Positions 1,167-44,640 of a stretch of DNA of 64,000 nt are shown one piece after another. The translations under genes were made by a program, and so were the position numbers. The stretch is from the NCBI GenBank assembly GCA_016287565.1, contig JAEFAM010000002.1, positions 7,648-71,647 of the forward strand, given 5' to 3'. The stretch is from Clostridia bacterium (GTDB lineage Bacteria > Bacillota > Clostridia > UBA1212 > UBA1255). A model generated the notes under the pieces. That model saw nothing but the letters and a program-made list of their open reading frames with translations. It searched no databases and was not told where the DNA came from. How positions within the stretch are numbered: position 1 is the first letter of the stretch; every line of letters begins with the position of its first letter.

Positions 1167-2765
1167 TCATTCTTTTTTCGTCCGGCGGGAAGAGGTTGTC
1201 CTCTTCTTTGCGCCTGATGCCTTCTCGGGCTGGCCGGAAGCGCCTGCTTCCCCGGCGGTTGTTGCCGGCTGCTCGGGTGCTTTTTCTTTCACGGCCTTTG
1301 CGCTTGCGGACCGGGTCCCTGCAGCGGATCTGCGCCTGGTCTTGGCTTCCGTTTTAGGTTCGGCTTTGACCTCTGGCTTGGCCTCAGGCTCGGCTTTGGT
1401 TTCCGCTTTAAGCTCGGCTTTTTTAGCGCCTGCGCTTCTCCTTGACGAAGATTTTTTGGCGCCGGTCACGGCTTCCTTTTTCCCTTCCGATTTGGCTTCA
1501 GCCTTGATTTCAGCCTTGGCCTCGGGCTTCGTTTCCGCTTTCACTTCCGCTTTTGATTCGACTTTCTGCTCGGCTTTCACTTCCGCTTTCGCTTCGGTTT
1601 TGGGCTCGGATCTTGTCTCGGCCTGGGTCTCGGCCTTAGCCTCTGCAGAGGCCTTGCCTGTCCTGCCGCGCCTTCTGGACGAAGACTTGCGGGTATTTGA
1701 CCCGGACTGTGCAGCAGTTTCGGATGCTGCGTTCTGCTTCTCGGCATTCTGCTTCTCGGCGGGAACGGCAGCGGCGTTGTTGACGGCGTCATCCACCGTT
1801 TTAACGGGCTCGGCGACGGCGGCGGCAACGGCGGCGGTCTTCGATTGACCCTTCTCCGCGTCCAGCCTGCGGCGCTCCTCATACTTAAGTCTCAGGCAAT
1901 AATTGCTGGGCCCTTTCTGTTTGCTCTCGAGAAATCCGAGAGACAGAAAATAAGTGGTCCAGATCTTGCGCTTTCCGGCGAACAGAGGCAGGTCCGCGTA
2001 ATCCTTGATGTCCAGATCCGGGAATTTCTGCATAAGCCGGTTGAGCATGGTGCTGGCGGAGAACCAGCCGTCATCTTCGGTGCATCCGTAAAGGAATTCC
2101 CTGATGGCGTCCCGGAGCTCTCTGTCGCTGAGTACCTTGCGCTTCTCCTCGGCAGGGGCTTCGTTCTGCTCGGGCTCGGCAGCATCGGCGGCCTGCGCAG
2201 GCAGTTCTTCTTCCCCGGCGGGTTTCTCCTCATCGGCCTTTTCAGAGGCGCCATGGGGGAATTTCGCCACGCGAAGGGGCCTGCGGGCAGCGAGCCTCAG
2301 CTTTTTCTGCTCGGTCAGTTCCTCTGCGATCCGTCTCGATTCTCTCAGCACGATGAAATCGGTGCATGCCGCCCGGAAAGCAGCGGGAGCCACGTCGTCT
2401 CCCATTCCGATGACGGTCATTCCGCTCTCTCTTAATCTGAGGGCAAGGCGGGTAAAGTCGCTGTCGTTGGTCACGATGGCGAATCCGTCGACTTTTCCGG
2501 TATATAAAATGTCCATGGCGTCAATGACCATTGCGATGTCAGTGGCGTTCTTGCCTTTTATGTAATTGAACTGCTGCACCGGCGTAAGCGCAAATTCCAC
2601 CAGTTTTTCCTTAAGAGCGCTGCGGTTGTACTCGGCCCAGTTGCCGTAGATGCGCCTGAAGGTGGCGTTGCCCCAAAGAGAAATCTCGCCGAAAATGCGT
2701 TCGAAACGCTCCGGCGAGACGTTGTCCGCGTCGATGAGAACGGCAAACGTTTTTTGATTTTCCAT
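1167..2765 (-). CDS. NYN (PIN-like) domain plus OST-HTH/LOTUS domain protein with a long Lys/Ala/Glu-rich repetitive C-terminal tail
   Basis: N-terminus FAVLIDADNVS...AMVIDAMD...IVTNDSDF matches the NYN/LabA fold. The middle segment LNRLMQKFPDLDIKDYADLPLFAGK is OST-HTH-like. The last ~180 aa are KAE/KTE repeats (AEVKAEQKVESKAEVKAETKPEAKAEIKAEAK). Confidence 0.7.
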   Translation of the reverse strand: MENQKTFAVLIDADNVSPERFERIFGEISLWGNATFRRIYGNWAEYNRSALKEKLVEFALTPVQQFNYIKGKNATDIAMVIDAMDILYTGKVDGFAIVTNDSDFTRLALRLRESGMTVIGMGDDVAPAAFRAACTDFIVLRESRRIAEELTEQKKLRLAARRPLRVAKFPHGASEKADEEKPAGEEELPAQAADAAEPEQNEAPAEEKRKVLSDRELRDAIREFLYGCTEDDGWFSASTMLNRLMQKFPDLDIKDYADLPLFAGKRKIWTTYFLSLGFLESKQKGPSNYCLRLKYEERRRLDAEKGQSKTAAVAAAVAEPVKTVDDAVNNAAAVPAEKQNAEKQNAASETAAQSGSNTRKSSSRRRGRTGKASAEAKAETQAETRSEPKTEAKAEVKAEQKVESKAEVKAETKPEAKAEIKAEAKSEGKKEAVTGAKKSSSRRSAGAKKAELKAETKAEPEAKPEVKAEPKTEAKTRRRSAAGTRSASAKAVKEKAPEQPATTAGEAGASGQPEKASGAKKRTTSSRRTKKE

Positions 2766-2905: not shown

Positions 2906-3841
2906 TCAGCGGAACCGGGGCTCCGACGTAAAGGTGCGGCGGGGCAGCAGCCCTTCCGGATCCAGTGAGACGCGCTCCTGGTCGAATTCGTATCTGGCGG
3001 CCCAGAGAGCCTGGTATTTAAGCCCCGTAAGGCGGTTCTGAGCCTCCCGGCCGTACTTGCCGTCGCCGGCGACCGGGAAGCCGAGATGAGCCAGATGGGC
3101 GCGGATCTGGTGGGTGCGGCCGGTGACCAGCATTGCCTCCAGGTCAGATATGACGGTGCCTCCCCTGCCTGCGGACCTGCCCTTGAGCCTGAGATGTGTC
3201 TCGATGGGGCGGAAGCCTTCCCTCTCTTCGTCGGACAAGGTCACCAGGCTCTCGCCGGAGCGTTTTCCCAGGAATCCGTAAAAAGGCCTCCAGGAGCCAT
3301 TTAGAGGCAGGATCGCCCCGGCATCCCCGATGACCTTGACCGCGTAGATCTTGCGGTAAAAACGGCCGTTAAGGGCATTTTTTACGGTTTCCGTGCGTTC
3401 GGGCCGCTTGGAGATGAATATAAGGCCTCCGGTGTTCCTGTCCAGCCGGTGGCAAAGCTCGAATTCCGACCTGTCTTCGCCCTTTTCTTCGCCGGCGGCT
3501 CGCACCAGCTCGATCAGGGACGGTTCTCCCGGCCTGGACGGATCCGGTTCGCTGAGGAGCCCCTGAGGCTTCTCGACCAGCATTACGCTGTCGTTCTCGT
3601 ACACGGTGACGATCCTGCCGGAGATCGCGCTCCCCGGGCCGTCCGGGTCGATATATGCGGTCACCACGTCTCCTTCGTGAAGCGCCAGTGCTCCGTCGCC
3701 GGTGCGGACGCCGTTGACCTTCACGTCCCGCTTGCGAAGCGCCCTTCGCAGCACGCCGTAGGGCACGAGAGAATATCTGGAGGCAAATATTTTCTCCAGC
3801 GCCCTGCCGTTTTCTTTTTCATTGACCGTGAATTCTATCAT
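2906..3841 (-). CDS. RluA-family 23S rRNA pseudouridine synthase (S4 domain plus PseudoU_synth_2)
   Basis: HRLDRNTGGLI catalytic Asp motif and GRTHQIRAHLAHLGFPVAGDGKYG motif. Confidence 0.8.
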   Translation of the reverse strand: MIEFTVNEKENGRALEKIFASRYSLVPYGVLRRALRKRDVKVNGVRTGDGALALHEGDVVTAYIDPDGPGSAISGRIVTVYENDSVMLVEKPQGLLSEPDPSRPGEPSLIELVRAAGEEKGEDRSEFELCHRLDRNTGGLIFISKRPERTETVKNALNGRFYRKIYAVKVIGDAGAILPLNGSWRPFYGFLGKRSGESLVTLSDEEREGFRPIETHLRLKGRSAGRGGTVISDLEAMLVTGRTHQIRAHLAHLGFPVAGDGKYGREAQNRLTGLKYQALWAARYEFDQERVSLDPEGLLPRRTFTSEPRFR

Positions 3842-6900: not shown

Positions 6901-7590
6901 TTAGATTATTATAAATACTATCAGCAGCACCACGGCCACGCCTATCACGACGCCGCCTATCCGCTTGTAAATATCCATATCGTGCCACTCGGGTATCTCG
7001 TCTTCTCCCTTGCGCTTGAAGAAGTGCCACAGTTCCTCCGCAAAGAAGATTATGAGCGCGCCGCCCGCGGCCACCGCCGCCACTATAATGGCCTGGGTCA
7101 CCGTGAGCAGAGGCTTTTTACCGAATATCATCGTGAGGAAAACGTTTTTGCTGAACCGTTCGAAAGGCGCTTCTTCGTAATTATCGTCGAAGCCCTCTAC
7201 AAGTTCGTAATCCACCTGAGCCGTCTTCTTGGTCTCGCCGCTGACGTAGTAGGTATACGCGTAGGGCTCCAGGGTGTAGTCCGGCATCTCGTCGGTCTGG
7301 TCGATGTCGATCTCGCTATCGTCGCGCTCCACGGGGATCCGGATGTTCATCACTATACTGTAAACGCCGTCGTCCGACTGGGTCAGGCGCCCCTCCATCA
7401 CGCGGGTGTCAACGAAATAAAACTCGTAAAGGGTAACGTCGCCGCCGCTGCCGGTGCCGGAATCGCGCACGTAGCGCACGTAATCCACCACGCCGGTGTG
7501 ATTGTCGCCGAAAGTGCGCGTCAGGAGAGTCAGCAGGCTCAAGACCAGCAGACAGACCATCAATATCGCCACGTTGCGTCCTTTGTTCAT
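6901..7590 (-). CDS. Hypothetical membrane protein
   Basis: One N-terminal and two C-terminal hydrophobic helices with an acidic middle region. No known motif. Confidence 0.5.
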   Translation of the reverse strand: MNKGRNVAILMVCLLVLSLLTLLTRTFGDNHTGVVDYVRYVRDSGTGSGGDVTLYEFYFVDTRVMEGRLTQSDDGVYSIVMNIRIPVERDDSEIDIDQTDEMPDYTLEPYAYTYYVSGETKKTAQVDYELVEGFDDNYEEAPFERFSKNVFLTMIFGKKPLLTVTQAIIVAAVAAGGALIIFFAEELWHFFKRKGEDEIPEWHDMDIYKRIGGVVIGVAVVLLIVFIII

Positions 7591-7610
7591 TGTCTCTCCC
7601 GCCGCCGGAC

Positions 7611-8840
7611 TCAGTCCAGCATATTCCTTTCAAGGGCCGATTCGTAAAGGGCCCTGGCCGTTTCCACGCTGTCTTCCCCTGTTTTGTTTTTCAGGGGGGC
7701 AAACTCGTCTTCTCTTCTGACGCGCAGGATGCCCATCTCCGGGTACCTGCAGAAAGCGTCGAATATGAACGCTTCGAACTTGTACGCGTTGGGCTTATCC
7801 GGGACAACGACCTCTCCCGCGCCGTTGACGAACTGCGTCTTCTTCACGGCCACGTGGTAAGGCAGCCCTTCCGCCCCCGCATCTTTCAGCGCGTCAACGC
7901 TGAAAATGTTGCACAGTATGTGCGCGTCTCCATAGATGAAATCGCCCCGGGCGTCCGTGGCCCTGGCCATCTCGTCGGATATTTCCGTATATTCTACTAC
8001 GTATGGCCTTCCGTCCCTGAGGCAGAAGACTCCGGCTTTCTCGTAAGGATCGCGCTTGATGAGGGACTTGCCGGCGCAGGGGTAGCCGTTCAGGGAGGCG
8101 AAGCCGATGAACAGCGGGTCGCAGAGCTTCACCAGCACGTTGTCGATGCCGCCTACGAAAGCGTACCTGATGCCGCGCTTTTCCATATCGCGGATAACGC
8201 CCCGCCTGTCCATTGCCCGGAAGATGCCTCCGTGGCCGTCGGCGCCCATCTTGATGCTGTCCGGCCTGTCCCGGACGATCCTGCCTTCAAAGTCGAGCAT
8301 GGGTAGCATGAACTGGGTGAAGAAAAATACGTTGTCCCTGTCGTAGCCGAAATAAGCGTTGTCCTCGAAGAACCGCCTGGTGGCGCCGTCGTTTTCCTCG
8401 CTGGTCATTATATACCAGGGGATCTGGCGTCCGCCTCCGGATGATGCGGCGCGTCGAAGGAGCCTCGAAGCCTGTATCTCGAACAGGGAATGCTCCCGGA
8501 CGCCCAGGTCGAAGGTGCCTTTGGGGCCCGTGTGGCCCAGCCTGGTGCCCTGGCCCCCTGCCATAGTCACCGAAGCGAAAGCGCCTTCGCGGATGAGCCT
8601 CTCCCCTTCCGCCACGTATTTAGCCCTGACTCCCTTCGGGAGCTCCTCGGCCACCGTGACGGGTATGGGAGTGATGTTGCCCTCGTCCGGACGTGCGCCT
8701 TCTCTGGCAAGGCGGTACAGGCCGGAGACCAGTTCAAGATCGATGCCCGCCAGCTTCTCCGCCGCGTCAACCGTTCCCAGAAGCTGTCCCTGACCTGCCT
8801 CTTCAAGTTCTTTTTTCAGCTTTTCTGTGTCAATGACCAT
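7611..8840 (-). CDS. UDPGP-family sugar-1-phosphate uridylyltransferase (UDP-GlcNAc/UDP-glucose pyrophosphorylase type)
   Basis: MAGGQGTRLG nucleotide-binding signature of the eukaryote-type UDPGP family. Confidence 0.7.
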   Translation of the reverse strand: MVIDTEKLKKELEEAGQGQLLGTVDAAEKLAGIDLELVSGLYRLAREGARPDEGNITPIPVTVAEELPKGVRAKYVAEGERLIREGAFASVTMAGGQGTRLGHTGPKGTFDLGVREHSLFEIQASRLLRRAASSGGGRQIPWYIMTSEENDGATRRFFEDNAYFGYDRDNVFFFTQFMLPMLDFEGRIVRDRPDSIKMGADGHGGIFRAMDRRGVIRDMEKRGIRYAFVGGIDNVLVKLCDPLFIGFASLNGYPCAGKSLIKRDPYEKAGVFCLRDGRPYVVEYTEISDEMARATDARGDFIYGDAHILCNIFSVDALKDAGAEGLPYHVAVKKTQFVNGAGEVVVPDKPNAYKFEAFIFDAFCRYPEMGILRVRREDEFAPLKNKTGEDSVETARALYESALERNMLD

Positions 8841-12673: not shown

Positions 12674-13507
12674 TCAGTCCGTTTTGAAGTTTTTGTCGCG
12701 GTTCTTAAAATGCTTCACAATCATTTCCACTATCCCGCTTAAGACGGACAACGCAGCCAGCGCGATGATGACTATCATGATCACGCCGCCAGCGGAAGAA
12801 GTGTTGTTCTTGCCCTCTCCCTCCGGAACTTCGAACTTGATGACGTTGCCGTTGTACGTGGGCACCGGCGTGGCGTTCGGATCCCGCGTGACCTCCGGCG
12901 TCCCGGTCGCATCTGCGTCTTCCGTCGCTTCAGGGTCGATTTCGCCCTTCTCTTCCGGGTCGATCGCGCCCGCTTCTTCCGGGTCAATCGCGCCCGTCGC
13001 TTCCGGGTCCATCGCGCCCGTCTCTTCCAGGTCCATCGCACCCGTCGCTTCCGCCAGATCCGTCAATACGGTCTCCGCCTGCCCCGCCGCATCGAGCGCG
13101 GCAACGTCCGCCATCTCCGCCTCAGCGAGCATGGCAACGTCCGCCTTCTCCGCCTGCTCAGCCTCAGAGAGTGGGGCAACGTCCGCCTTCTCCGCCTCAG
13201 CGAGCATGGCAACGTCCGCCTTCTCCGCCTGCTCAGCCTCAGAGAGTGGGGCAACGTCCGCTATCTCCGCCTGCTCTGCCGCAGAGAGTGGGGCAACGTC
13301 CGCTATCTCCGCCTGCGGGATCTCGCCGGCCTCGGCAAATACAGGCGCGTGAGCGGCGGCGAGGCACAGCACGGCAATGACGATCAGCGCGGCAATAAAT
13401 GCCGCTTTCCTGCTGCCGCAATTTGCTGTTTTCCCGAACCAGCGGTGTTTCATAACAGGCACACACCCCCACGGTGGTATTGTACCATCGAAGGCGTTTT
13501 TTGGCAA
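12674..13507 (-). CDS. Secreted/membrane-anchored acidic tandem-repeat protein
   Basis: Signal-like hydrophobic segment (likely start MKHRWFGK at 13453). Repeats ADVAPLSEAEQAEK/ADVAMLAEAE and a C-terminal TM anchor. The repeats are also visible at the DNA level. Confidence 0.55.
   Translation of the reverse strand: MPKNAFDGTIPPWGCVPVMKHRWFGKTANCGSRKAAFIAALIVIAVLCLAAAHAPVFAEAGEIPQAEIADVAPLSAAEQAEIADVAPLSEAEQAEKADVAMLAEAEKADVAPLSEAEQAEKADVAMLAEAEMADVAALDAAGQAETVLTDLAEATGAMDLEETGAMDPEATGAIDPEEAGAIDPEEKGEIDPEATEDADATGTPEVTRDPNATPVPTYNGNVIKFEVPEGEGKNNTSSAGGVIMIVIIALAALSVLSGIVEMIVKHFKNRDKNFKTD
13100..13320. repeat. In-gene tandem DNA repeats (33 plus 42 bp compound unit) that encode the acidic peptide repeats
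   Basis: GCAACGTCCGCCTTCTCCGCCTCAGCGAGCATG alternating with GCAACGTCCGCCTTCTCCGCCTGCTCAGCCTCAGAGAGTGGG. Confidence 0.7.
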
Positions 13508-13539
13508 GGATAAACAGACGAAGAACGGACGGAATTCCT

Positions 13540-13815
13540 CTGTGCAAAGTGATCTTCGCCTGCGGCGAGTGATCTTCGGCCTGACGGCCGAGTGATATTG
13601 CGCGGGGCGCAGTGATATTCGCCATACGGCGAGTGGTGTTGCGCGGCGCGAGCAGCTAAATTCGACTTCGTCGAGCGAAATTGAACCCTGACTGTTTAGC
13701 GGGGCTTTTCAGGGTTCAGCTAAATGCGACTTCGTCGCGCTAAATTCGTGCTGTCACACGAGCTAAATTCCGCATTGCGAGCAGTGAAATTCGACTTCGT
13801 CGAGGAAAATTGATC
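13540..13815. repeat. Array of mini-hairpins separated by the conserved octamer GTGATATT/GCTAAATT (top-strand orientation)
   Basis: About 12 units of roughly 20 nt. Each is an 11-16 nt palindrome (for example CGCCTGCGGCG, TGCGCGGGGCGCA, CGACTTCGTCG) followed by GTGATCTT, GTGATATT, GCTAAATT or GTGAAATT. Confidence 0.8.
13681..13719. repeat. Conserved hairpin class 2 (TTGAACCCTGA-loop-TCAGGGTTCAG) followed by CTAAAT
   Basis: 10-bp stem with a 19-nt loop. The same stem with a different loop occurs at 21208..21245. Confidence 0.7.
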
Positions 13816-13885
13816 TTCGGTCGGAGGGATTGATCTCTTCCTTCGCTCATACCAAAGGCCTTGCTCTGTCTCCGAGAGGCAGATG

Positions 13886-14142
13886 AACGAAAAACGCCCA
13901 CATTTTACCGCTCCTTTCAAATTTCTGGGCGTTTTGAAGAAGGACGCTCTGTCTATTAGCTTTAAACGAGCGGAAAACGCCCACATTTTACCGTTTCTTT
14001 CGAATTTCCGGGCGTTTTGAAGAAGGTGGCGCTGCCTCTGAAGCTTGAAATGAGCGAGAAACGCCCACATTTTACCGTTTCTTTCGAATTTCTGGGCGTT
14101 TTGAAGAAGGTGGCGCTGCCTCTGAGCTTGAAACGAGCGATA
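13886..14142. repeat. Three tandem copies of an 83-bp unit, each with a 9-bp-stem hairpin AAACGCCCA-25 nt-TGGGCGTTT
   Basis: Unit starts at 13892, 13975 and 14058, nearly identical. The track ORF 13720..14190(-) is a translation artefact of this repeat. Confidence 0.8.
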
Positions 14143-14189
14143 ATATAGCTGGACCCTGACGTGCTCGAGCAAAAAGCCGGAAGGGTCCA

Positions 14190-14644
14190 ATTTAGCCGAA
14201 GCAGCAGGCTTCGATTTAGCTGTGAGCGCCAGCGAACAATTTAACTGAAGGCCGCAGGTTCCATTGTCTCTGAAAGCCTGCGGTCTTCAGTTTCACTCGC
14301 GCGCCAGCGCGAATTTAGCTCGGCCGTCAGGCCGAATTTAACTGCCGCAAAGAGGCAATTTAGCTTGACGAAGTCGAATTTAGCTGCTCGCCTCGCAAGC
14401 AATTTCGCTCGCGCGTCAGCGCGAACATCACTCCGCGAAGCGGAATATCACTTGCCCGCAGGGCAAATATCACTCGCGCGCCAGCGCGAATTTAGCTCGG
14501 CCGTCAGGCCGAATATCCCTCGCCGCAGGCGAATATCACTCGGCTCCAGTCTGACGTCAGGCCGAATATCCCTCGCCGCAGGCGAATATCACTCGGCTCC
14601 AGTCTGACGTCAGGCCGAATATCACCGCGGCTCCCACCTGCTCC
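14190..14644. repeat. Array of mini-hairpins with octamers AATTTAGC/AATATCAC (opposite orientation to 13540..13815), ending in 2.5 copies of a 59-bp unit
   Basis: Units such as CTCGCGCGCCAGCGCG-AATTTAGCT, CGGCCGTCAGGCCG-AATATCCCT and CGCCGCAGGCG-AATATCACT. The 59-bp unit contains the palindrome CTGACGTCAG. The array abuts the GH3 stop codon. Confidence 0.8.
14247..14288. repeat. Conserved hairpin class 1 (GAARRCCGCAGGYT-CCATTGTCTCTGAAA-AGCCTGCGGYYTTC)
   Basis: 14-bp stem. The loop is identical to the copy at 26787..26828 and differs by one nucleotide (CCATTGTCACTGAAA) from the copy at 24584..24625. Stem differences between copies are compensatory. Confidence 0.8.
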
Positions 14645-17152
14645 TCAGGCCGCGTTCTTCGTCAGGTGCTCGAACTCCTTCCTCGGCACGCAGCGGGGTT
14701 CGACGTCGTCGGTAACGGTCAGCACTTCTCTGTTGACGCTGGCGCTGTCCGCAAAAGAGCCACAGGCATTGCCCACGTAAAACACGTACTCGCCCTCCGG
14801 AACGATATACCGGCTGTTGTCCTTGTCGTAGGCCCGAAGCTGCTCCTCGGTCACCGTGACGGTAACCGTCTGAGACTTGCCTGCCTTCAAAGTCTTGGTC
14901 TTGGCGAAGCCGCAGAGCTCGTAGGCGGCCATTTCGAGAGTGCCTTCGGGCTTGGAAACGTAAAACTCCACAACTTCACGGCCCGCGGCCTTGCCCGTAT
15001 TCTTGACCGTGACCTTCAGCTCGTAGGTGCCGTCGCCGTTGTCCTTCACGGAAAAACCGCTGTAGGAGAAGGTGGTGTAGGAAAGGCCGTAGCCGAAGGG
15101 GTACGCGGTCCCGACTTCGAAGGTGGAATAGTACCTGTATCCCACGTAAATGTCCTCGTAGTAGATCACTTTGGAGGAATTGCCCGGGAAATGGCGGAAC
15201 GCGGGAGTGCTCTCGTAGGTCAACGGCCAGGTGATGACGGTCTTGCCGGAGGGATTCACTTTTCCGGACAACACGTCTGCCACCGCTTCTCCGGCTCTTT
15301 CGCCGGGATAGCCGCACCATAGTATGGCGTCGACCGAGTCGCGCCAGGAGATCACTTCTATGGGGTTGCCGGTGTTCAGAACGACGATCACTTTCTTGCC
15401 CGCGGCGTGGAAGGCCTCGGAAGCGTTCCGGATCATCTCTTCCTCGCGTTCATTCAGCAAAAAGCCGCCTTCCTTTTCGGTATTGTCCGCGCCTTCCATA
15501 GAGATGCGGGAGATGACTATCACGGCGGCTCCTGCGCCCTGGGCGCATTCTTCGGCATATTCCCTGCTGACCTGCACGTCTTTGGTGGGATCGGTCTCGG
15601 AATGGGCTTCGCACCAGTTGAAAATGTTGAACGCCTTGTCGTATACGGAAAGGCCGGAAGCCGCGTCGATGCCGTCGATGATGTTGACCGTCTCCACCGG
15701 GTTGACGCCTCCGGAACCTGCTCCGCCGTAGAACGTGCTGAATGCGCCGTTTCCGAATGCCGCCACCACCGTGCCGGACTTCAGAGGCAGCGCAGAACCC
15801 TCGTTCTTAAAGAGCACCATAGTCTCGGCGGCAACTTTTCTGGAGATCTTGGAATGACCGGCGTGATCCACCTCGTGGTTCATCTTGACCCCGTTGTAGG
15901 TGGGAGACGCCAATATAGTGTTCAATATGTGCTCGGCGCACCGGTCAAGCGCCTCCAGATCAACGTTGCCCTCCGAAAGGGCCTCGAGCATCTGCTGCAT
16001 CTCTCCGTAAGATCCCGGCATATCCAGGTCGTTGCCGGCTTTTACCTTATCGGGGATGCTTCCCGCGGCGCCCCAGTCGGACATGACCACTTTCCGGAAG
16101 CCCCATTCGTCGCGCAAAATGCCCGTGAGCAGGTCTTTGGTGATGGAAGTGTGGTTGCCGTTCAGGCAGTTGTACGAAGACATCACTGCCATGGGATCGT
16201 CGTTTTTGACAACGTATTCGAACCCTCTCAGGTATATCTCCCGGAGCGCTCTTTCGGTGACTTCGGAACTGACGGTACCGCGCCAGGTCTCCTGGTTGTT
16301 GACGCAGAAATGCTTGAGGCACGCTCCTGCGCCGGTGGACTGGAGGCCGCGCACGTAGCCTGAGGCGGCAAGCGCGGTGACAAGCGGATCTTCTGAGAAA
16401 TATTCGAAATTCCTGCCTCCCAGCACGTTTTTATGTATGTTCATACCGGGGCCCAGCACGATGTCGATGCCCTGGGCCAGCGAGTCCTCTCCGATGGCCT
16501 TGCCCACTTCATATATGCGGTCCGTGTCCCAGGATGAGGCGAGGTTCATCATCGACGGGTACCAGACGGCATAGCCGTACCGGACACCCGCGGGGCCGTC
16601 GTTGACAGTAATGGTGGGGATGCCGTAGTGATCCAGAGAGAAGGTGCCTCCGGAGGATCCCGGTTTGGCCGGATTGGGTTCACCCATCACCAGATTCGCT
16701 TTTTCCCTGGCGGACATGGCGTGTACGACGCATTTCACTCCGTCATGGGTCAATTGCGGCAGCCTGTCTATAAGTTTCAACTCCGCTCTGCCGTATTCCT
16801 TTCCCTCCAGCGTGTACGAAACGAGCACCGTCAATTCGTCCCAGAGCCTTCCGGGGGAGCATTCCAGCCGCACTTCCTCGGGCGTTTCAGGCAGGTGGTC
16901 TATCTCCGCCCGGTCGATCTCCCCTTTCACGTCAGTAAGAGTCACCGTAACTATGCCGCCCGCGATCTCCTCGGAAGCCACCGATCCGCTCAATTTAAGC
17001 GTGACTGCTCCGTCGGCGGCAGTCATCTCCCATGCGGTGATGGAGGCCCTGGGCCCGTTGTCCTCTTTAGGGCGGCAGGCGCAGAACAGCGCGGCGGCAA
17101 GGACCACCGACCACACCAATAAAAGCGATCTTAACAAAACGGTTCTTTTCAC
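14645..17152 (-). CDS. Glycoside hydrolase family 3 (beta-glucosidase/beta-xylosidase-like), secreted lipoprotein
   Basis: GH3 N-domain motifs KHFCVNNQETWR and VMSDWGA (catalytic Asp), then GH3 C-domain and Fn3-like tail. Signal peptide with Cys (LFCAC). Confidence 0.8.
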   Translation of the reverse strand: MKRTVLLRSLLLVWSVVLAAALFCACRPKEDNGPRASITAWEMTAADGAVTLKLSGSVASEEIAGGIVTVTLTDVKGEIDRAEIDHLPETPEEVRLECSPGRLWDELTVLVSYTLEGKEYGRAELKLIDRLPQLTHDGVKCVVHAMSAREKANLVMGEPNPAKPGSSGGTFSLDHYGIPTITVNDGPAGVRYGYAVWYPSMMNLASSWDTDRIYEVGKAIGEDSLAQGIDIVLGPGMNIHKNVLGGRNFEYFSEDPLVTALAASGYVRGLQSTGAGACLKHFCVNNQETWRGTVSSEVTERALREIYLRGFEYVVKNDDPMAVMSSYNCLNGNHTSITKDLLTGILRDEWGFRKVVMSDWGAAGSIPDKVKAGNDLDMPGSYGEMQQMLEALSEGNVDLEALDRCAEHILNTILASPTYNGVKMNHEVDHAGHSKISRKVAAETMVLFKNEGSALPLKSGTVVAAFGNGAFSTFYGGAGSGGVNPVETVNIIDGIDAASGLSVYDKAFNIFNWCEAHSETDPTKDVQVSREYAEECAQGAGAAVIVISRISMEGADNTEKEGGFLLNEREEEMIRNASEAFHAAGKKVIVVLNTGNPIEVISWRDSVDAILWCGYPGERAGEAVADVLSGKVNPSGKTVITWPLTYESTPAFRHFPGNSSKVIYYEDIYVGYRYYSTFEVGTAYPFGYGLSYTTFSYSGFSVKDNGDGTYELKVTVKNTGKAAGREVVEFYVSKPEGTLEMAAYELCGFAKTKTLKAGKSQTVTVTVTEEQLRAYDKDNSRYIVPEGEYVFYVGNACGSFADSASVNREVLTVTDDVEPRCVPRKEFEHLTKNAA

Positions 17153-19319: not shown

Positions 19320-21122
19320 TCATTTGTAAAGCGGCCCGAAGTTCTTGCAGGCCCGGAAATCGGCGCCTTCCTTGTCCATGCCGAAAGCGTTCCAGGCGGC
19401 GGGACGGAATATGTCTTTGTCGGGGACGTTGTGCATGCACACGGGTATTCTCAGTATGGAGCAGAGCGTGATCAGATCTGCGCCGATGTGGCCGTAGGAG
19501 ATGGCTCCGTGGTTGGCGCCCCAGTTGTTCATTACACTGTACGCGTCTTCGAAGGGGCTGCCGGACCTGCCGTCGCAGCGTGGCGTGAACCAGGTGCAGG
19601 GCCAGGTAGGATTGGTGCGTTCCATCAATATATCCGTGACTTCGTCGGGCAGTTTTACGGTCCAGCCTTCCGCGATCTGGAGCACGGGGCCCAGGCCTTT
19701 GACCAGGTTAAGGCGGATCATCGTGGCAGGCATTTCGGCCCTGGTGACGAAGTGGCTGGAGAAGCCGCCTCCGCGGAAATTGTCGAAGCCGGCCTCGCAC
19801 CAGACGGTGGCGGCGGTCATCTTTTCGATGTCTTCGTCGTTGACCTCCCACCAGCGTTTCATCAGGTGATTGCCCTCGGCGTCGGTGGCCTCTCCGCAGG
19901 CGTCGAGACAGGCGGCGCCGGAGTTGAGCAGGTGGATTATGCCACCGTTCTCCCTGGCCTTGCCCTGGAATTCGTAATTCGCCACCCGTTTTACGGCGTC
20001 GGGAGACCAGTAGGTGCGCACGTCGGCGAATATCTGGGCGCGGCCGGTGAGCAGCTTCATAAAGAGCATCCCCATGCCGTTCAGGATGTCGTTTTCGGTG
20101 GCAAGCACGTAGGGCTCCCTGGCGCCTTCAAAGTCGAAGGAGGAGTTCAGCAGCGCCTCGGGATAGTCGCAGTTGGGCCAATGGTCTGTCCACTGGCGCT
20201 GTCCCTGGAAGCCGGCGGCGATGGCGTTGTGGCCGGAAGCTTCTTCTTTGAACTGCGGAGGCAGCCGGTCGCTTCCGCCCATGAGGTCGCGGATGATCAG
20301 ATACATTTTTACGGTGAATTCCCACTGTTTTTTCTTCTGTTCGGGAGAGAAACGCACGAAATCCGGGTTGTCGTCCCGGCCTTCCTTACAATGTTCGAAG
20401 GTCCAGGCCAGCGCCCGCTCGTAATCCTCTTTGTTGTATATCCCCTCTTCCATGCGCCTGAGTATCTCAACTTCGTCAACGGATTCCACCCGCATGCCGA
20501 AGTAGTCCTCCATAAACGCCTGGTCCATTATCGACCCGCCGATGCCCATCGTCACCGAGCCGATCTGGAGATACGATTTGCCCCGCATGGACGCCGCGGC
20601 AACGGCTGCCCTGCCGAACCGCAAAAGCTTCGCGGCAACGTCGTCGGGTATCCTGTCCACGTCTCCCACGTCCTGCACTTCGTGCCCGTATATCCCGAAG
20701 GCAGGCAGCCCTTTCTGTGCGTGTGTGGCAAGCACGGATGCCAGATACACCGCTCCGGGCCGCTCCGTGCCGTTGAAGCCCCAGACCGCCTTTATAGTAT
20801 GCGGGTCCATATCCATGGTCTCTGATCCGTAGCACCAGCAGGGCGTCACGGTCAACGTGATGTCCACTCCTGCTTTTCTGAATTTCTCCGCACACGCCGC
20901 GGATTCCGGCACCCGGCCAATGGTCGTGTCCGCCACGATGACCTTCACGGGCTCCCCGTTCGAATAGAAAAGGTTCTCCTCGAACAGCTTCTTCGCCGCC
21001 AGGGCCATGGCCATGGTCTGGTCCTCCAGGCTCTCTCTCAGCCTCATTGGCCCCCGTCTGCCGTCAATAGTCGGTCTGATGCCTATCACCGGTTCTCCGC
21101 CGATAAGTCGCTGCTTTTTCAT
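19320..21122 (-). CDS. fucI: L-fucose isomerase (also acts on D-arabinose)
   Basis: N-terminus [26 protein letters not shown] matches E. coli FucI ([31 protein letters not shown]). About 600 aa, as for FucI. Confidence 0.85.
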
Positions 21123-21205: not shown

Positions 21206-21325
21206 TGTTGAACCCTGATATGTTGTCAGAAAATTCAGGGTTCAGCTAAATTCGTCCTGACGAACGAGCGGAATTCGTCCTGGCGGGCGGGCGAAATTGC
21301 TCGCGTGGCGAGCGGCTCTTGTTTA
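21206..21325. repeat. Class-2 hairpin plus a short mini-hairpin/octamer array in the fucI upstream region
   Basis: TTGAACCCTGA-20 nt-TCAGGGTTCAG, then CTAAATT-CGTCCTGACGAACGA-GCGGAATT-CGTCCTGGCGGGCGGGCG-AAATTG-CTCGCGTGGCGAGCGG. Confidence 0.7.
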
Positions 21326-24469: not shown

Positions 24470-24655
24470 ATGCGCGAAGGAAATATTTAGCCGCTCGCCA
24501 CGCGGGCAACATCACTCCGCGAAGCGGAATTTCGCTCGCGCCAAAGCGCGAATTTAGCTGGATCCGCAGGCTTCAATTTAGCTGAAAACCGCAGGCTCCA
24601 TTGTCACTGAAAGCCTGCGGTTTTCAATTTAGCTCGGCATAGAGGGCTATCACTT
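24470..24655. repeat. Mini-hairpin/octamer array plus a class-1 hairpin between convergent genes
   Basis: CCGCTCGCCACGCGGGC-AACATCACT-CCGCGAAGCGG-AATTTCGCT-CGCGCCAAAGCGCG-AATTTAGCT-GGATCCGCAGGCTTC-AATTTAGCT-[class-1 hairpin 24584..24625]-AATTTAGCT. Confidence 0.8.
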
Positions 24656-26329
24656 TTCCCTCTTGTCCTTCTCCCTGATCTCCACGCGGCGGATCTTGCC
24701 GCTGATGGTCTTGGGCAGCTCGTCGACGAATTCCACGACACGGGGGTACTTGTAAGGAGCGGTGGACTTTTTGACGTGGTTCTGCAGCTCCTTCTTAAGC
24801 TCGTCGGAAGCCGTGTAGCCCCTTGCCAGCACCACGGTGGCCTTGACCACCTGGCCCCTGAGTTCGTCGGGGACGCCGGTGATGGCGCATTCCAGCACCG
24901 CGGGGTGGGTCATCAGGGCGGATTCCACTTCGAAGGGGCCGATGCGGTAGCCGGAGCTCTTGATGACGTCGTCCTTGCGGCCAACGTACCAGAAATAGCC
25001 TTCCTCGTCGCGGTAGGCCAGGTCGCAGGTGTGATAATAGCCGTCGTGCCAGACTTCCTCGGTGAGTTCCTTGTCCTTGTAATAGCCCTTGAACATGCCG
25101 ACGGGGCGGCCTTTGGAGGTGTTGATCACGATCTCACCCACTTCGCCGGGATAGCAGGAACGCATATCGTTGTCGACGATATCCACGTCGTAGCAGGGGG
25201 AGGGTTTGCCCATGGAGCCGGGTTTTTTCTTCATCCAGGGGAATGTGCAAACGAGGGCAACGACTTCGGTCTGCCCGTAGCATTCCCGCATCTCGATGCC
25301 GGTGGCCGCCTTGATCTGGTTGAACACTTCCGGATTCAGCGCCTCTCCCGCCACGGTCAATTCCCGGAGCGACGACAGGTCGTAGCTCTTCATATCTTCC
25401 TTCATCATGAAGCGGTACATCGTTGGCGGCGAGCAGAAAGTGGTGAGTTTGTAGTCCTGCATCTTCCGGAGCAGTTTGTTGGGATCGAACTTGTCCATAT
25501 CGTACACGAAAATGGCGGTCTCCCCCAGCCATTGACCGTAAAGCTTGCCCCAGACGGCCTTTGCCCAACCCGTCTCCGCCACCGTCATATGAAGGCCGCC
25601 CTCTTTAACGCTGTGCCAGTAACCGGCGGTGATTATGTGGCCCAGAGGGTAGGCGAAATCGTGTATGACCATCTTGGGATAGCCGGAAGTGCCGGAAGTA
25701 AAATACAGGAGCATGGTGTCGTCGTTGTGCACCGCTTTCTCCCCCTCCGGCCTGGGGAAAACGTCGGAAGCGCTTTCCACGCCCTTGTCGAAATCCAGCC
25801 AGTCGCCTCCCGGGAACTCCCCGTGGCCGCCGGCGGACAATTTAAGCTTCAGCGTGGGCGAGGTCAATTGCGCCTCTTCCACCTGCTTGTAAAAGTCGTG
25901 GTCCGTGGTGGCGATGATCGCCTTCACGTCCGCCCTGTTGAACCTGTAATCCAGGTCCTTCGCCGTCAACAGGTGCGTTGCGGGCACGGCAACGGCTCCG
26001 ATCCTGTGAAGCCCCATCAGCGCGTACCAGAACTGGTAATGGCGCTTCAGCACCAGCACCACGCTGTCGCCCTTCCCGATGCTCAGGCTCGACAGATAAT
26101 TGGCCGCGCGCATCGACAGCTTCGACATCTCGCCAAACGTGAAAGTCCGCTCCGCGCCATGATCGTCGCACCAGACCATTGCCCTGCCGTCCGGATCCTT
26201 CTCCGCCAGCGCGTCCAGCACGTCGTATGCAAAATTAAAATCGTCTGGGACGTTGATCCGCAGATTCGCCTTCATATCCTCGTAAGACGTAAAATCCGCT
26301 CTGTTAACGTACTTCTCAAAAAATGCCAT
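24650..26329 (-). CDS. AMP-forming acyl-CoA synthetase (ACSM/medium-chain fatty-acid-CoA ligase-like)
   Basis: AMP-binding motif YFTSGTSGYPK, YGQTE, and the C-terminal KTISGKIRR lysine motif. Start at ATG 26329 with AGGTGG Shine-Dalgarno. Confidence 0.8.
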   Translation of the reverse strand: MAFFEKYVNRADFTSYEDMKANLRINVPDDFNFAYDVLDALAEKDPDGRAMVWCDDHGAERTFTFGEMSKLSMRAANYLSSLSIGKGDSVVLVLKRHYQFWYALMGLHRIGAVAVPATHLLTAKDLDYRFNRADVKAIIATTDHDFYKQVEEAQLTSPTLKLKLSAGGHGEFPGGDWLDFDKGVESASDVFPRPEGEKAVHNDDTMLLYFTSGTSGYPKMVIHDFAYPLGHIITAGYWHSVKEGGLHMTVAETGWAKAVWGKLYGQWLGETAIFVYDMDKFDPNKLLRKMQDYKLTTFCSPPTMYRFMMKEDMKSYDLSSLRELTVAGEALNPEVFNQIKAATGIEMRECYGQTEVVALVCTFPWMKKKPGSMGKPSPCYDVDIVDNDMRSCYPGEVGEIVINTSKGRPVGMFKGYYKDKELTEEVWHDGYYHTCDLAYRDEEGYFWYVGRKDDVIKSSGYRIGPFEVESALMTHPAVLECAITGVPDELRGQVVKATVVLARGYTASDELKKELQNHVKKSTAPYKYPRVVEFVDELPKTISGKIRRVEIREKDKREK

Positions 26330-26739
26330 CAGAACCACCTTCCATTCCTCGGAGTAAATATGAATCGGACGGAAGTTCCGGGGACAAAAAAACTCGTCTC
26401 AGAAACGAGACGAGGTCAATGACTTCGTTATACCACTCGGAATTCTGTCGGATTCGGTACGCCCCGGCCCTTTTCCTGCTGAGCCTCGCGCACTTAAATC
26501 TTCCGCCTGTCACGGGACGCCCCGGAGCCGCTTACCACCGTCTCCGGCTTCAGCCGCCCGGCTCAGGAGTGATCTGCTTCCGCCCTTCCTCACCGCATTG
26601 CACCAGACTGCGGCTCTCTATAGAGGACAATGGCGGCGCCCGTCTCCGTCAACGCCGTTACGCGAATTATACTCCTCGTTTCCCGGCGGCGCAAGTGGTT
26701 TTTTGCTCGGGACAATACGCGGCGCGCGGAAGGACATGG

Positions 26740-26856
26740 TGCGCATGGCGCGCAGTGATATTGCTCGCGTTGTGAGCAGCGAAATTGAAAACCGCAGGCT
26801 CCATTGTCTCTGAAAGCCTGCGGTTTTCAATTTCACTCGCGCGTCAGCGCGAACGC
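26740..26856. repeat. Class-1 hairpin flanked by inverted octamers, immediately downstream of trkH
   Basis: CAGTGATATTG...GCGAAATT-[GAAAACCGCAGGCT-CCATTGTCTCTGAAA-AGCCTGCGGTTTTC]-AATTTCACT-CGCGCGTCAGCGCG. On the minus strand the hairpin is followed by UUUUC, so it may also act as the trkAH terminator. Confidence 0.75.
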
Positions 26857-38626: not shown

Positions 38627-38749
38627 TACTCTTCTCCGATTTTAAAAACATTAAAAAAGCGATGGCATAAAACCACGGATAGGATTTTACCACATTCAGG
38701 GAGGTAAAACAACCCTTTTTTCAATTTGAAAAACCGGCAGATTTGTGCT

Positions 38750-39275
38750 AAATTTAGGGGCGGGGCGCAGTGATATTCTGCTTCGCAGAGTGATATTGCG
38801 CGGGGCGCAGTGATATTGTGCTTCGCACAGCTAAATTACTCGCTTGCGCTCGCAGCTAAATTGCGTGCAGGGCACGCAGCTAAATCGAAGCCGTCCGGCT
38901 TCGGCTAAATTGACCTTCGGTCAGCTAAGCTCGGTTGCGGCGAGTGATATTGCGCGAAGCGCAGTGATATTCTGCTTCGCAGAGTGATATTGCGCGGGGC
39001 GCAGTGATATTCTGCTTCGCAGAGTGATATTGCGCGGGGCACAGTGATATTGTGCTTCGCACAGCTAAATTACTCGCTTGCGCTCGCAGCTAAATTGCGT
39101 GCAGGGCAAATTAAGCTGTTCGCGCCAGCGAACGATATCACTCGGCGAAGCCGAACATCACTCGCACGCAAGTGCGAATATCACTGCGAGTGTTAACGAG
39201 CAATATCACTTGGCGTAGCCGAACATCACTCGCACGCCGGTGCGAATATCACTGCTCATACCAGCGAGCAACAGG
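38750..39275. repeat. Large mini-hairpin/octamer array that switches orientation near 39115 (GTGATATT/GCTAAATT units, then GATATCACT/GAACATCACT units)
   Basis: Units of about 20 nt: TGCGCGGGGCGCA-GTGATATT, CTGCTTCGCAG-A-GTGATATT, GTGCTTCGCAC-AGCTAAATT and so on. A 150-bp block (38760-38910) is duplicated at 38950-39110. The right arm reads CGGCGAAGCCG-AACATCACT, CGCACGCAAGTGCG-AATATCACT. Confidence 0.8.
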
Positions 39276-44158: not shown

Positions 44159-44169
44159 TGGCGACACCT

Positions 44170-44640
44170 CCTGTTGTTAGTGGGAAACGGGAAATGGCAA
44201 GTGGCAAATGGCAAGTGGGAAATGGAAAATGGCAAATGGCAAGTGGGAAATGGAAAATTATATTTTCCTCATTTTCAATCTGCACTTCTCGCTTTGCGTT
44301 TTTCAATTTCCGATTTGCAATTTCCAATTTGCAATTCTCAACTGGCAAGTGGGAAATGGCAAGTGGCAAATGGCAAATGGGAAATGATAATATCCTTTTC
44401 TCCTTTTCGATTTTCAACTATTCACTTGCAATTTGCAATTTCCAATTTGCAATTTTCTATCTTCCCCTTTTAATTTGCAATTTGCAATTTCCAATTTGCA
44501 ATTTTCAATTTGCAATTTCCAATTGTCACTTCGCAACTTTTAATTTGCAATTTGCCATTTGCAATTTGCAATTTTCAATTTGCAATTCTCCATTTGCCAT
44601 TTGCCATTTGCCATTTGCAATTTGCAATTTGCAACTAATC
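44170..44640. repeat. 470-bp intergenic block of heptanucleotide tandem repeats G[CG]AA[AG]TG alternating with complementary-orientation blocks CAATTT[GC]/CATTTGC
   Basis: Block 44175-44265 is (GCAAGTG/GCAAATG/GGAAATG/GAAAATG)n. Block 44300-44335 is (CAATTTC/CAATTTG)n. Block 44336-44385 is again (GSAARTG)n. Block 44420-44640 is (CAATTTG/CCATTTG)n. The track ORFs here (44025..44417, 44158..44679, 44174..44473, 44559..44771) are repeat translations. Confidence 0.85.

Follow-up and report, generated by a model that had tools for sequence, protein, structure and literature searches.

A 1.1-kb intergenic stretch in a 64-kb segment of contig JAEFAM010000002.1 from a Clostridia bacterium (hereafter the window, i.e., all 64,000 nucleotides analyzed) consists of two facing arms of small hairpins and a central tandem repeat, and lies between the end of a GH3 glycosidase gene and the promoter of the next gene, which encodes a repeat protein. 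Almost certainly the element belongs, in expanded form, to an interspersed repeat family found in uncultured gut Clostridia, a single arm of which is represented in Rfam as Gut-1 (RF01706). As to mechanism, the reading that we tentatively favor, short of an even chance, is that of an intergenic punctuation repeat, similar to repetitive extragenic palindromes (REPs) and bacterial interspersed mosaic elements (BIMEs), that folds in transcripts arriving from either side.

Anatomy of the element and its relation to Gut-1

The unit of both arms is an AT-rich head of 8-9 nt (GTGATATT, GCTAAATT or GTGAAATT) followed by a GC-rich hairpin of 4-7 bp with C-G as the closing pair and TNC or TNNC in the loop. 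The units are joined head to tail with a period of mostly 20-24 nt, the two arms face inward, and a few long hairpins of 35-45 nt are interspersed. The stems change between units (CGCC/GGCG, CGGCC/GGCCG, GCGC/GCGC and CGAC/GTCG in the window arms). Two opposed trains of octamer plus palindrome had been described in the first-pass annotation and were confirmed at 13549-13830 (+) and 14142-14632 (-). The three-fold tandem repeat reported for the center was also recovered, with a period of 84 bp instead of 83 according to Tandem Repeats Finder (TRF). The features of the interval are:

13451-13453, - strand: probable start codon (ATG) of the repeat-protein gene (gene call in the independent contig L001, mapped to the window)
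13479-13507, - strand: sigma-70-type promoter of the repeat-protein gene (TTGCCA, 17 nt, TG-n-TACAAT)
13549-13830, + strand: left arm, 12 head-plus-hairpin units (unit table)
13875-14140, no strand assigned: central tandem repeat (TRF: period 84, 3.0 copies, 88% matches, 13888-14140)
13891-13935, no strand assigned: terminator-like inverted repeat AAAACGCCCA...TGGGCGTTTT in repeat copy 1 (sequence; RNA fold of the - strand)
13974-14018, no strand assigned: the same inverted repeat in repeat copy 2 (sequence; RNA fold)
14059-14102, no strand assigned: the same inverted repeat in repeat copy 3 (sequence; RNA fold)
14142-14632, - strand: right arm, 19 head-plus-hairpin units (unit table)
14502-14623, no strand assigned: tandem duplication in the right arm (TRF score 244; two-unit 53 bp x2.3, 100% identical)
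14645-14647, - strand: stop codon TGA of the GH3 glycosidase gene (gene 14645-17152; Pfam Glyco_hydro_3 N and C, Fn3-like)

Both flanking genes lie on the - strand, probably the leading one by GC skew. Read on this strand, the order is GH3 stop codon, 19 nt, 19 units, three 84-bp units, 12 reversed units, 41 nt, promoter and ATG at 13453. The first head of the right arm follows the GH3 stop codon by these 19 nt on the same strand with no terminator between. The right-arm heads (GTGATATT, GCTAAATT and GTTAAATT on the - strand; AATATCAC and AATTTAGC on the + strand) are on the sense strand of both flanking genes, and this arm includes long hairpins at 14151-14188 and 14246-14291. The left-arm heads run on the + strand, antisense to both genes. 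They comprise GTGATCTT and GTGATATT twice each and GTGGTGTT, then GCTAAATT, GCGAAATT and GTGAAATT types, with GTGAT types outermost, GCTAA types inward and a long hairpin at 13683-13717. Both arms grade from GTGATATT-type heads on the gene side to GCTAAATT-type heads on the center side.

A gap of 41 nt separates the promoter (13507-13479) from the nearest unit of the left arm, and a homologous promoter is kept in L119. The span originally assigned to the element implied that the downstream gene starts at 13507; the probable start is the ATG at 13453, and 13479-13507 belongs to the promoter. The 7-mer TATTGTA (13478-13484) has a symmetric -10 layout, a geometry reported for bidirectional promoters (preprint 10.1101/2020.01.31.928960), and this promoter may fire divergently.

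The central inverted repeats have an A-run before and a T-run after them and a loop of ~25 nt, and could act as terminators in both directions. A simple terminator scan detected no site in either arm; the central inverted repeats are too long-looped for that scan. The sequence after the hairpins of the arms is AGUGAUAUU or AGCUAAAUU, not the U-tract that defines an intrinsic terminator; hairpins between A-runs and T-runs are confined to the central units. The 84-bp unit was found nowhere else in the window. A protein-coding reading was rejected: the open reading frame (ORF) at 13720-14190 (-) merely spans repeats, and the gene caller finds nothing in L001 between GH3 and the next gene.

The arrays exceed chance by a wide margin. 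The window contains 24 copies of AATATCAC and 18 of AATTTAGC against ~1.2 expected for each, an enrichment of ~15- to 20-fold, and the shuffle maximum was 4. At least four perfect pairs counted from the ends were present in 25 of 29 inter-head segments (mean 1.3 and maximum 7 in 2000 shuffles of the interiors), and over 622 pooled units the hairpin potential was 71% versus 2%. An independent NCBI contig from a metagenome-assembled genome (MAG), GCA_016295045.1 (L001), is identical over 14.4 kb, arms included, except for the copy number of the 84-bp unit, which is 3.0 in the window and 4.1 in L001 (L001 9013-9354). This difference is either a true variable-number repeat or an assembly collapse, and the latter would speak for an origin by chance, low-complexity sequence or assembly artefact. 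Against such an origin stand the octamer enrichment, which the shuffles nowhere approach, the large hairpin excess, the identity of the arms in L001, and at least 69 family loci from dozens of genomes in a family that was already in the 2010 Rfam seed. We consider it practically negligible, and for the arms it is refuted.

Recurrence in the window, which the first-pass annotation put at four more loci, was found at five, and all six loci are intergenic. They have 3 to 31 units and occur in both orientations:

21210-21320, + strand: locus B, long hairpin and 3-4 units, heads on +
24484-24640, - strand: locus C, 6-7 units, heads on -; single arm between convergent genes
26740-26856, no strand assigned: locus E, mini-module; on the - strand 1 unit, a 42-nt long hairpin and 2 reversed units
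38747-39105, + strand: locus D, left arm, ~17 units, heads on +; 40-nt and 115-nt internal duplications
39109-39271, - strand: locus D, right arm, 7 units, heads on -; converges on the left arm

The single arm of locus B lies 88 nt before the start of the fucose-isomerase gene (19320-21122, -) and faces away from this gene; locus D is two-armed without a central repeat. The first head of locus C begins 16 nt past the stop codon of the AMP-binding-enzyme gene (24650), and locus E starts 4 nt past the TrkH stop codon (26857), upstream of a T-box-like leader. Thus three arrays of the window start 4-19 nt past stop codons (19 nt for GH3, 16 nt for locus C and 4 nt for locus E). Since they directly follow stop codons with no other terminator between, they must be part of 3' untranslated regions (UTRs).

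The Rfam gathering score of RF01706 is 50 bits. Three Gut-1 matches exceeded it, at 14397-14475 (-) with 66.1 bits, at 38922-38995 with 54.2 and at 38768-38841 with 51.5. Nine further sub-threshold matches (36-48 bits) were located in both arms and in loci C and D, so that in all Gut-1 matches reach both arms of the element, locus C and both arms of locus D. Among the sub-threshold matches from Rfam are:

13527-13603, 13610-13686 and 13737-13815, + strand: left arm
14234-14344, - strand: right arm, 36.2 bits
14528-14627, - strand: right arm, 40.4 bits
24480-24560, - strand: locus C, 45.8 bits
within 38747-39105, + strand: left arm of locus D, 48 bits

The family, left unnamed in the first-pass annotation, is therefore one already catalogued. 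Gut-1 was described as a probable non-coding RNA by covariation, from human-gut metagenomes only and with neither organism nor function (Weinberg et al., 2010, Genome Biol 11:R31; PMC2864571), and Rfam types it as 'Gene; sRNA'. The Rfam model has 77 nt and three hairpins with GUGAAAU-type linkers and covers a piece of one arm. It belongs to the same sequence family as the window element, but the latter is two-armed and multi-locus, with up to 31 units and a central tandem repeat. The human-gut small RNA (sRNA) candidate also contrasts with the family found here, which is present in ruminant gut MAGs as well and behaves as a dispersed repeat. The 2010 seed already shows a tRNA 3' end, a terminator, CAGUUAUAUUCGCC and the center GCGAAUAUAAUAUCAC, a context then left undescribed. 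In our literature search Gut-1 was mentioned only by the original paper of 2010, and a search for the octamers returned nothing relevant.

The motif itself has been known since 2010 through Rfam, so the find does not define a new category. To judge from the literature that could be searched, the convergent two-arm architecture, the head-to-center pairing and the placement between a tRNA or transfer-messenger RNA (tmRNA) terminator and a promoter, which are presented below, are apparently undescribed. The same holds for the expansion to 31 units with a variable central repeat, the parallel head families and the host range. A dispersed hairpin array of REP/BIME-like type describes Gut-1 better than a small-RNA gene does, and RF01706 matches in annotations should be taken as pieces of repeat arrays, not as genes.

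Hosts, placement and fold of the module

One genome per species was scanned for three consecutive heads, which yielded at least 117 loci, overwhelmingly from MAGs of uncultured gut Clostridia of human and ruminant origin. Oscillospiraceae, Acutalibacteraceae, Christensenellaceae and 'Eubacteriales' were represented among the matches listed. A strict two-hairpin test was passed by 69 of the 117 loci listed, so at least 69 loci in other genomes are verified. Together with the six loci in 64 kb, this bears out the proposal of a dispersed repeat family; the hundreds of copies per genome given in the first-pass annotation are an extrapolation. Unrelated tandem repeats at L022, L032, L098 and L117 were recognized as chance matches.

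About 50 loci among the matches listed share a stereotyped module of ~170 nt with 4+4 units. On the strand of the upstream gene it consists of a terminator hairpin, C-AGTTATATT, four units, the center GGCGAATATAATATCACT and three hairpins. The stems of the first arm are CGCC/GGCG, GC/GC, CGGC/GCCG and GCCC/GGGC, and the hairpins of the second side are separated by AATATCACT. In the best-conserved class these are followed by TTGCAC-N17-TGcTATACT, a consensus extended -10 promoter, by a Shine-Dalgarno sequence and by ATG. The window element has the same architecture with more units.

In 13 of the 27 loci scanned for tRNAs the upstream gene was the last tRNA of a cluster or, in L101, tmRNA. Such a gene was always on the same strand and ~35 nt from the module, which follows the terminator of the gene; at L023 the module follows the end of a 5S/tRNA operon. 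Arm pairs were convergent in 33 cases and divergent in one, and modules were co-directional with protein-coding neighbors at ratios of 33:11 on the left and 32:8 on the right. The first-pass annotation had argued that the occurrence of arrays in both orientations speaks against a transcript-level signal. This argument does not hold, as the arms converge 33:1 and keep a fixed relation to the flanking units: the arm that carries GTGATATT on the gene strand comes after the stop codon of the upstream gene, and the opposite arm comes before the next promoter. A fixed orientation of this kind is just what a transcript-level role for RNAs from both sides needs. In L095 (4040-4990) two same-orientation arrays with GTGATAT[T/G] heads, each ending at a strong intrinsic terminator, flank a small Xre-type helix-turn-helix (HTH) gene and an ORF of ~28 aa. 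This locus shows that arrays can lie between stop codon and terminator, inside the 3' UTR.

The same two-armed architecture was found with other heads, namely GTATGTAATC/GATTACATAC after tRNA-Cys in L104 (900-1310, -), ACGATG/CATCGT in L088 (5780-6010) and ATGATATAC in L034 (2900-3020), and GTGAAATT heads occur at several loci. Modules with other heads keep the convergent arms, the hairpins, the loop polarity and the terminator-to-promoter site. Several head families are present together in one genome, also alongside GTGATATT-type modules, and the arms of one module always share the head. On the contigs L003 (2250-3400) and L097, binned as 'Akkermansia sp.', GTGAAATT-type arrays lie inside a ~440-bp unit in ~2.5 tandem copies; either these represent a mis-binned Clostridia contig or the family extends outside Bacillota.

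At module sites without a tRNA, a conserved stretch of ~50 nt was seen in its place, just outside the module-side terminator (L011, L034 at ~3030-3090, L088 at two sites, L111 and L112). On the module strand it reads ...GAAAAyCyyGGTTTTC-N-CCAGwTCTTTTTCGGACACGAATGrCA and is followed by the terminator. It had no Rfam match at the gathering threshold and could represent the 3' terminus of a structured RNA that is not annotated.

The orphan Gut-1 thereby gains hosts, i.e., the three families named above and other uncultured gut Clostridia, an anatomy of two convergent arms with a conserved center and long-range pairing, and a genomic rule, from the end of a gene or tRNA to the next promoter.

A fold of seven hairpin helices and one long-range helix was tested on 39 aligned modules from other genomes. 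In these, 91.6% of the cells pair, against 34-48% with slid partners, double-sided changes occur at 24 pairs, and none of 500 shuffles reached the observed values. The structure of the module is, judging from this covariation, under selection. The description of a conserved linker with variable, self-complementary stems agrees with these modules and with the 25 of 29 pairing segments of the window. The long-range helix of 12 bp is formed by the center (GGCGAATA[T/A/G]AAT) with a segment that spans the first head and extends through the 5' half of its stem (GTT[A/T/C]TATTCGCC). One of its pairs is AU in 25, UA in 8 and CG in 5 sequences, and the GCTAAATT subfamily keeps an equivalent head-to-center pairing. 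A four-way-junction ladder, in which left heads would pair with right heads, was rejected as the main fold. The 4+4 numbers match it, yet the first head AGTTATATT faces AATATCACT and the variants do not compensate, locus D is asymmetric, and RNAfold prefers local hairpins plus the head-to-center helix.

The stems are ~98.5% Watson-Crick, with 14 G.T and 8 A.C pairs. The ratio of G.T to A.C was 16:20 in head orientation and 14:8 on the module strand, which gave no usable asymmetry for assigning a strand. As G.T is no commoner than A.C, neither strand shows the wobble tolerance typical of RNA, which fits a two-strand constraint. The closing pair was C-G in 85% of the hairpins. On the head strand TNC was found in 46% of the triloops (63/137) and TNNC in 66% of the tetraloops, and the other strand accordingly reads GNA or GNNA. 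GNA on the head strand was found in only 1 of 137 triloops, i.e., the loops are polar. The cUUCGg tetraloop was considered as a sign of RNA; none was present, and the loops are TTC-type triloops.

These features bear on the question whether Gut-1 is a discrete gene for a trans-acting sRNA, for example a sponge that offers GUGAUAUU sites to an RNA-binding protein as CsrB does for CsrA. Its classification as a probable non-coding RNA by Rfam and by Weinberg et al. on the basis of covariation (PMC2864571) supports this, as do the repeated motif that is single-stranded between hairpins, the variation in site number between genomes, and module boundaries with a bidirectional terminator on one side and on the other a promoter with a symmetric -10. 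The latter was read by eye beyond the stereotyped module as TATACTA or TATAATA in 7 of 9 cases. In the module alignments and the window scan, however, no consistent promoter was seen before either arm, G.U pairs are nearly absent, and the Rfam model spans just three hairpins of one arm. Moreover, six loci in 64 kb with 3 to 31 units in both orientations, often in the 3' UTRs of unrelated genes, indicate the behavior of a dispersed repeat and not of a gene. We regard an sRNA gene as quite improbable.

An element acting as double-stranded or supercoil-dependent DNA is only slightly less improbable. Its heads would bind a nucleoid-associated, gyrase-like or partition-like factor, or they would melt under negative supercoiling while the GC palindromes extrude as cruciforms; in both cases the arrays would serve as supercoil buffers between highly transcribed units. 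The heads are spaced 20-24 bp apart, about two helical turns, and are AT-rich sequences flanking GC-rich palindromes, a context that favors cruciform extrusion. BIMEs bind gyrase and IHF, and protein binding by REPs and BIMEs has been noted in the literature on these repeats (PMC2817692). Stems with Watson-Crick pairs only would let both strands fold, and the genes that precede the modules (tRNA, tmRNA and 5S) are those with the heaviest transcription, with promoters following on the other side. On the other hand, the period varies from 20 to 25 nt and long hairpins intervene, so the sites are unphased, and with several unrelated heads per genome more than one protein would be required. For cruciforms the stems, at 4-7 bp, are very short, and loop polarity is not needed at a double-stranded site. 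The compensatory changes in the stems reflect selection on intrastrand pairing, not on a duplex motif.

Proposed intergenic punctuation, turnover and possible mobility

For the REP/BIME-like punctuation repeat that we tentatively favor, read-through from the upstream gene and divergent transcription from the downstream promoter would enter the module from either flank. Either transcript would read its near arm in the GUGAUAUU orientation and could fold co-transcriptionally into a train of stable mini-hairpins. These would obstruct 3'-5' exonucleases and would retard or halt RNA polymerase at the terminator-like hairpins of the center or ahead of them, and the barrier would set transcript 3' ends and insulate neighboring units. 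The DNA would have to fold when read both ways, hence the strictly Watson-Crick stems. Arrays may grow or shrink by slippage or unequal recombination, and multi-unit blocks may be copied between arms and loci by recombination or by a trans-acting enzyme. Both the folding of the hairpins as RNA and their action as a barrier to exonucleases and polymerase are inferred. REPs and BIMEs are extragenic palindromes at gene ends, for which mRNA stabilization, protein binding and transcription termination are known.

Several observations weigh against this reading. In AT-richer relatives a canonical terminator precedes the module, and the first arm would then rarely be transcribed from upstream. The heads (GTGATATT, GCTAAATT, GTATGTAATC, ACGATG and ATGATATAC) are too conserved and too family-specific for a simple barrier, and some head families are without a U-rich tail, so their units are not ordinary intrinsic terminators. 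G.U pairs are rare (~1-1.6% of cells), which is atypical of a selected RNA structure, and the conserved 12-bp head-to-center pairing with its compensatory changes has no role in the punctuation model. The co-orientation of 75-80% with genes is also expected from a replication-strand rule in Firmicutes. Finally, the polarity of the GNA/GNNA loops and their C-G closure point to single-stranded DNA (ssDNA) over RNA.

The last point leads to the main rival, a selfish ssDNA element like REPs or REPINs, whose units would be cut or copied by a trans-acting HUH/Y1 enzyme related to IS200/IS605 transposases or to REP-associated tyrosine transposases (RAYTs). Such an enzyme would be encoded once elsewhere in the genome, and effects on transcription would be secondary. 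We consider this possible but unlikely. The loop polarity gives C-GNA-G and C-GNNA-G on one strand, which are classic extra-stable DNA mini-hairpins, and the strictly Watson-Crick stems fit such an element. The heads resemble what we take to be the nick or target sites of HUH enzymes, CAACTTG^ATATT of phiX174 and TTGAT of ISDra2. A head followed by a GC-rich hairpin with a TTC-type loop matches published REPs, GTAG-GTCGGCC-TTC-AGGCCGAC (PMC2817692), and several head families coexist per genome, like REP families that each have a RAYT of their own. Clostridia are known to carry RAYTs of group 1 (PMC5581495). The orientation bias is as lagging-strand targeting would give.

The likeness to REPs and BIMEs extends further. 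Both are extragenic and multi-locus, with a conserved 5' head and GC-rich hairpin, arranged in arrays just after genes, with complementary mutations that keep palindromy, and for both, effects on termination and mRNA stability and the binding of proteins have been proposed (PMC2817692). The label REP/BIME-like given by the first-pass annotation was appropriate as regards position and the layout of the unit as head plus hairpin. It was not so for the conserved palindrome, the GT(A/G)G head and the alternating orientation. REPs conserve the palindrome itself and the GT(A/G)G head, whereas only the heads (GTGATATT or GCTAAATT) are conserved here, and BIMEs alternate in orientation with every unit, whereas here the units of an arm share one orientation, which is inverted only once, at the center (PMC2817692). 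The stems vary between units of one array, also unlike REPs, and this argues against the ssDNA element.

Turnover of the arrays was evident at several levels. The 53-bp duplication in the right arm, which is also present in L001, is recent, and locus D contains a 40-bp x3 duplication with 95% identity. Multi-unit blocks recur in both arms in the form of nested inverted repeats: 13548-13599 matches 14489-14540 (52 nt, 88%) and 13643-13683 matches 14356-14396 (41 nt, 90%). A further block of 71 nt with 90% identity is common to 14243-14313 and locus E (26783-26853). In a relative whose GH3 is 69% identical, the same gene pair and promoter are present, with a separation of 200 nt and no array. 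Both the blocks common to several loci and this empty site are in accordance with an ssDNA element. A graded evolutionary series at the GH3 site was sought and could not be assembled, as the nearest homologue is only 69% identical and a single empty site was obtained. In L120 an RVT_1 reverse-transcriptase gene (1251-2510) is located two genes upstream of a 57%-identical GH3 homologue, and a short dispersed repeat of another kind, 'AAAATCGTTGAAC(T)', is present in several copies at 7560-7830 of the same contig.

Compared with miniature inverted-repeat transposable elements, the modules have inverted heads at their ends, AGTTATATTC...GAATATCACT; a consistent duplication was not seen, and the empty site was seen only in a distant relative. 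An 8-nt match, AACTCTTG, that links the right flank to the 5' half of the terminator was considered as a target-site duplication and rejected, as it is found in one flank class only. That no target-site duplication was found speaks against the ssDNA element, and so do the position-specific hairpins that the 4+4 module keeps across bacterial families, which indicate long vertical conservation and not recent transposition.

The search for transposases recommended by the first-pass annotation did not reveal an enzyme. No transposase, HUH/Y1, integrase or cas gene was found among the 49 ORFs of the window, which are housekeeping genes (GH3, fucose isomerase, Rho, TrkAH, RF1/RF2, RNase R-like protein, capsule genes and others). 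No recurrent transposase-like ORF family was found within ~8 kb of the arrays in the 117 loci listed, although a single-copy RAYT-like gene could escape such a search. As a weak test, 910 kb were searched by tblastn with an IS200 TnpA query, which gave no match. In REP systems the RAYT is flanked by inverted REPs, whereas no RAYT was found here in the window or near the loci listed; published RAYT genes are always flanked by REPs (PMC2817692), so some should have been sampled.

Other signs of mobility were followed without result. Recurrent neighbors (ABC transporter, AraC and SDR genes) reflect orthologous contexts. Between separated arms, L042 contains housekeeping genes and L095 the small HTH gene, neither with a transposase. 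A phage origin was rejected, as none of 103 pattern matches in IMG/VR had hairpins or the center signature, and a plasmid origin was rejected on the lack of a blastn match in PLSDB.

The array also shares with clustered regularly interspaced short palindromic repeats (CRISPR) a regular alternation of conserved and variable parts with a period of tens of bases. The first-pass annotation was right to set it apart: here the linker of 8 nt (8-9 nt for the whole conserved part) is conserved and non-palindromic, the hairpin of 11-17 nt is variable, the arms are inverted, and there is no cas gene in the window, whereas CRISPR arrays have conserved repeats of 25-40 nt, unique spacers that are not palindromic and, usually, cas genes next to them. 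Like the window element, the BOX of Streptococcus pneumoniae (boxA-boxB(n)-boxC) is a Firmicute intergenic modular repeat with a variable number of internal units, a stable predicted structure and no transposase of its own. It differs in its conserved modules of 45-60 nt, where the window element has 20-nt head-plus-hairpin units, and in having no two-armed convergent layout and no sequence similarity. Tandem or bidirectional intrinsic terminators are similar in their GC-rich hairpins directly after genes and their two-strand stems, and the central units have the order A-run, hairpin, T-run. They differ in that the array units have no proper U-tract, and in relatives a canonical terminator already precedes the module.

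A somewhat more doubtful proposal than the ssDNA element is that Gut-1 is the most visible representative of a class of convergent-arm modules defined by architecture and variable in sequence. Its modules would be anchored between a terminator, often that of a tRNA, tmRNA or rRNA operon, and the next promoter, with heads that differ between modules but match between the two arms and with a long-range pairing that closes one arm. This would imply dedicated machinery or a folded state of its own. Candidates would be a new family of enzymes acting on ssDNA or RNA hairpins, or a multi-junction structure that separates transcription units or organizes the chromosome.

Gut-1 is thus seen to behave as an expandable dispersed repeat, which yields testable hypotheses of punctuation and insulation versus HUH-driven ssDNA. 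If Clostridia indeed have a REP-like system with its own enzyme, REP/RAYT biology would extend well beyond Proteobacteria. In these abundant gut organisms, short-read assemblies are probably interrupted at the arrays, and the variable numbers of units and repeats could serve as strain markers.

Other features of the window

The Rfam scan of the window returned only Gut-1, one tRNA and a weak T-box leader, and no tRNA-like units were found in the arrays. The T-box leader match at 26403-26661 (-) is below threshold (66.5 bits versus 93, E = 3e-12). It lies upstream of the AMP-binding-enzyme gene (24650-26338), with a terminator-like hairpin and T-run at ~26385-26425, and is directly preceded by the array of locus E.

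The repeat-protein gene downstream of the element (12674-13453, -) encodes 259 aa with no Pfam family and is built of 24-, 33-, 42- and 75-nt tandem DNA repeats (12922-13316). In L119 the corresponding gene product is a membrane-anchored repeat protein rich in Pro and Thr.

A second intergenic repeat system is located at 44181-44634, between an HD-domain gene (42962-44167) and an AP_endonuc_2 gene (44642-45607). Heptamers TGGCAAA/TGGGAAA (44181-44258 and 44343-44386) oppose TTGCAAT/TTTCCAA (44300-44336, and 44426-44634 with ~30 copies). The opposed arrangement of the blocks is like that of the hairpin arrays, and the heptamers recall the cyanobacterial short tandemly repeated repetitive (STRR) sequences. 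Tandem repeats of 12, 24 and 36 nt (1479-1609) were also found in the gene at 1167-2765 (-), which encodes a 532-aa protein with an N-terminal NYN nuclease domain.

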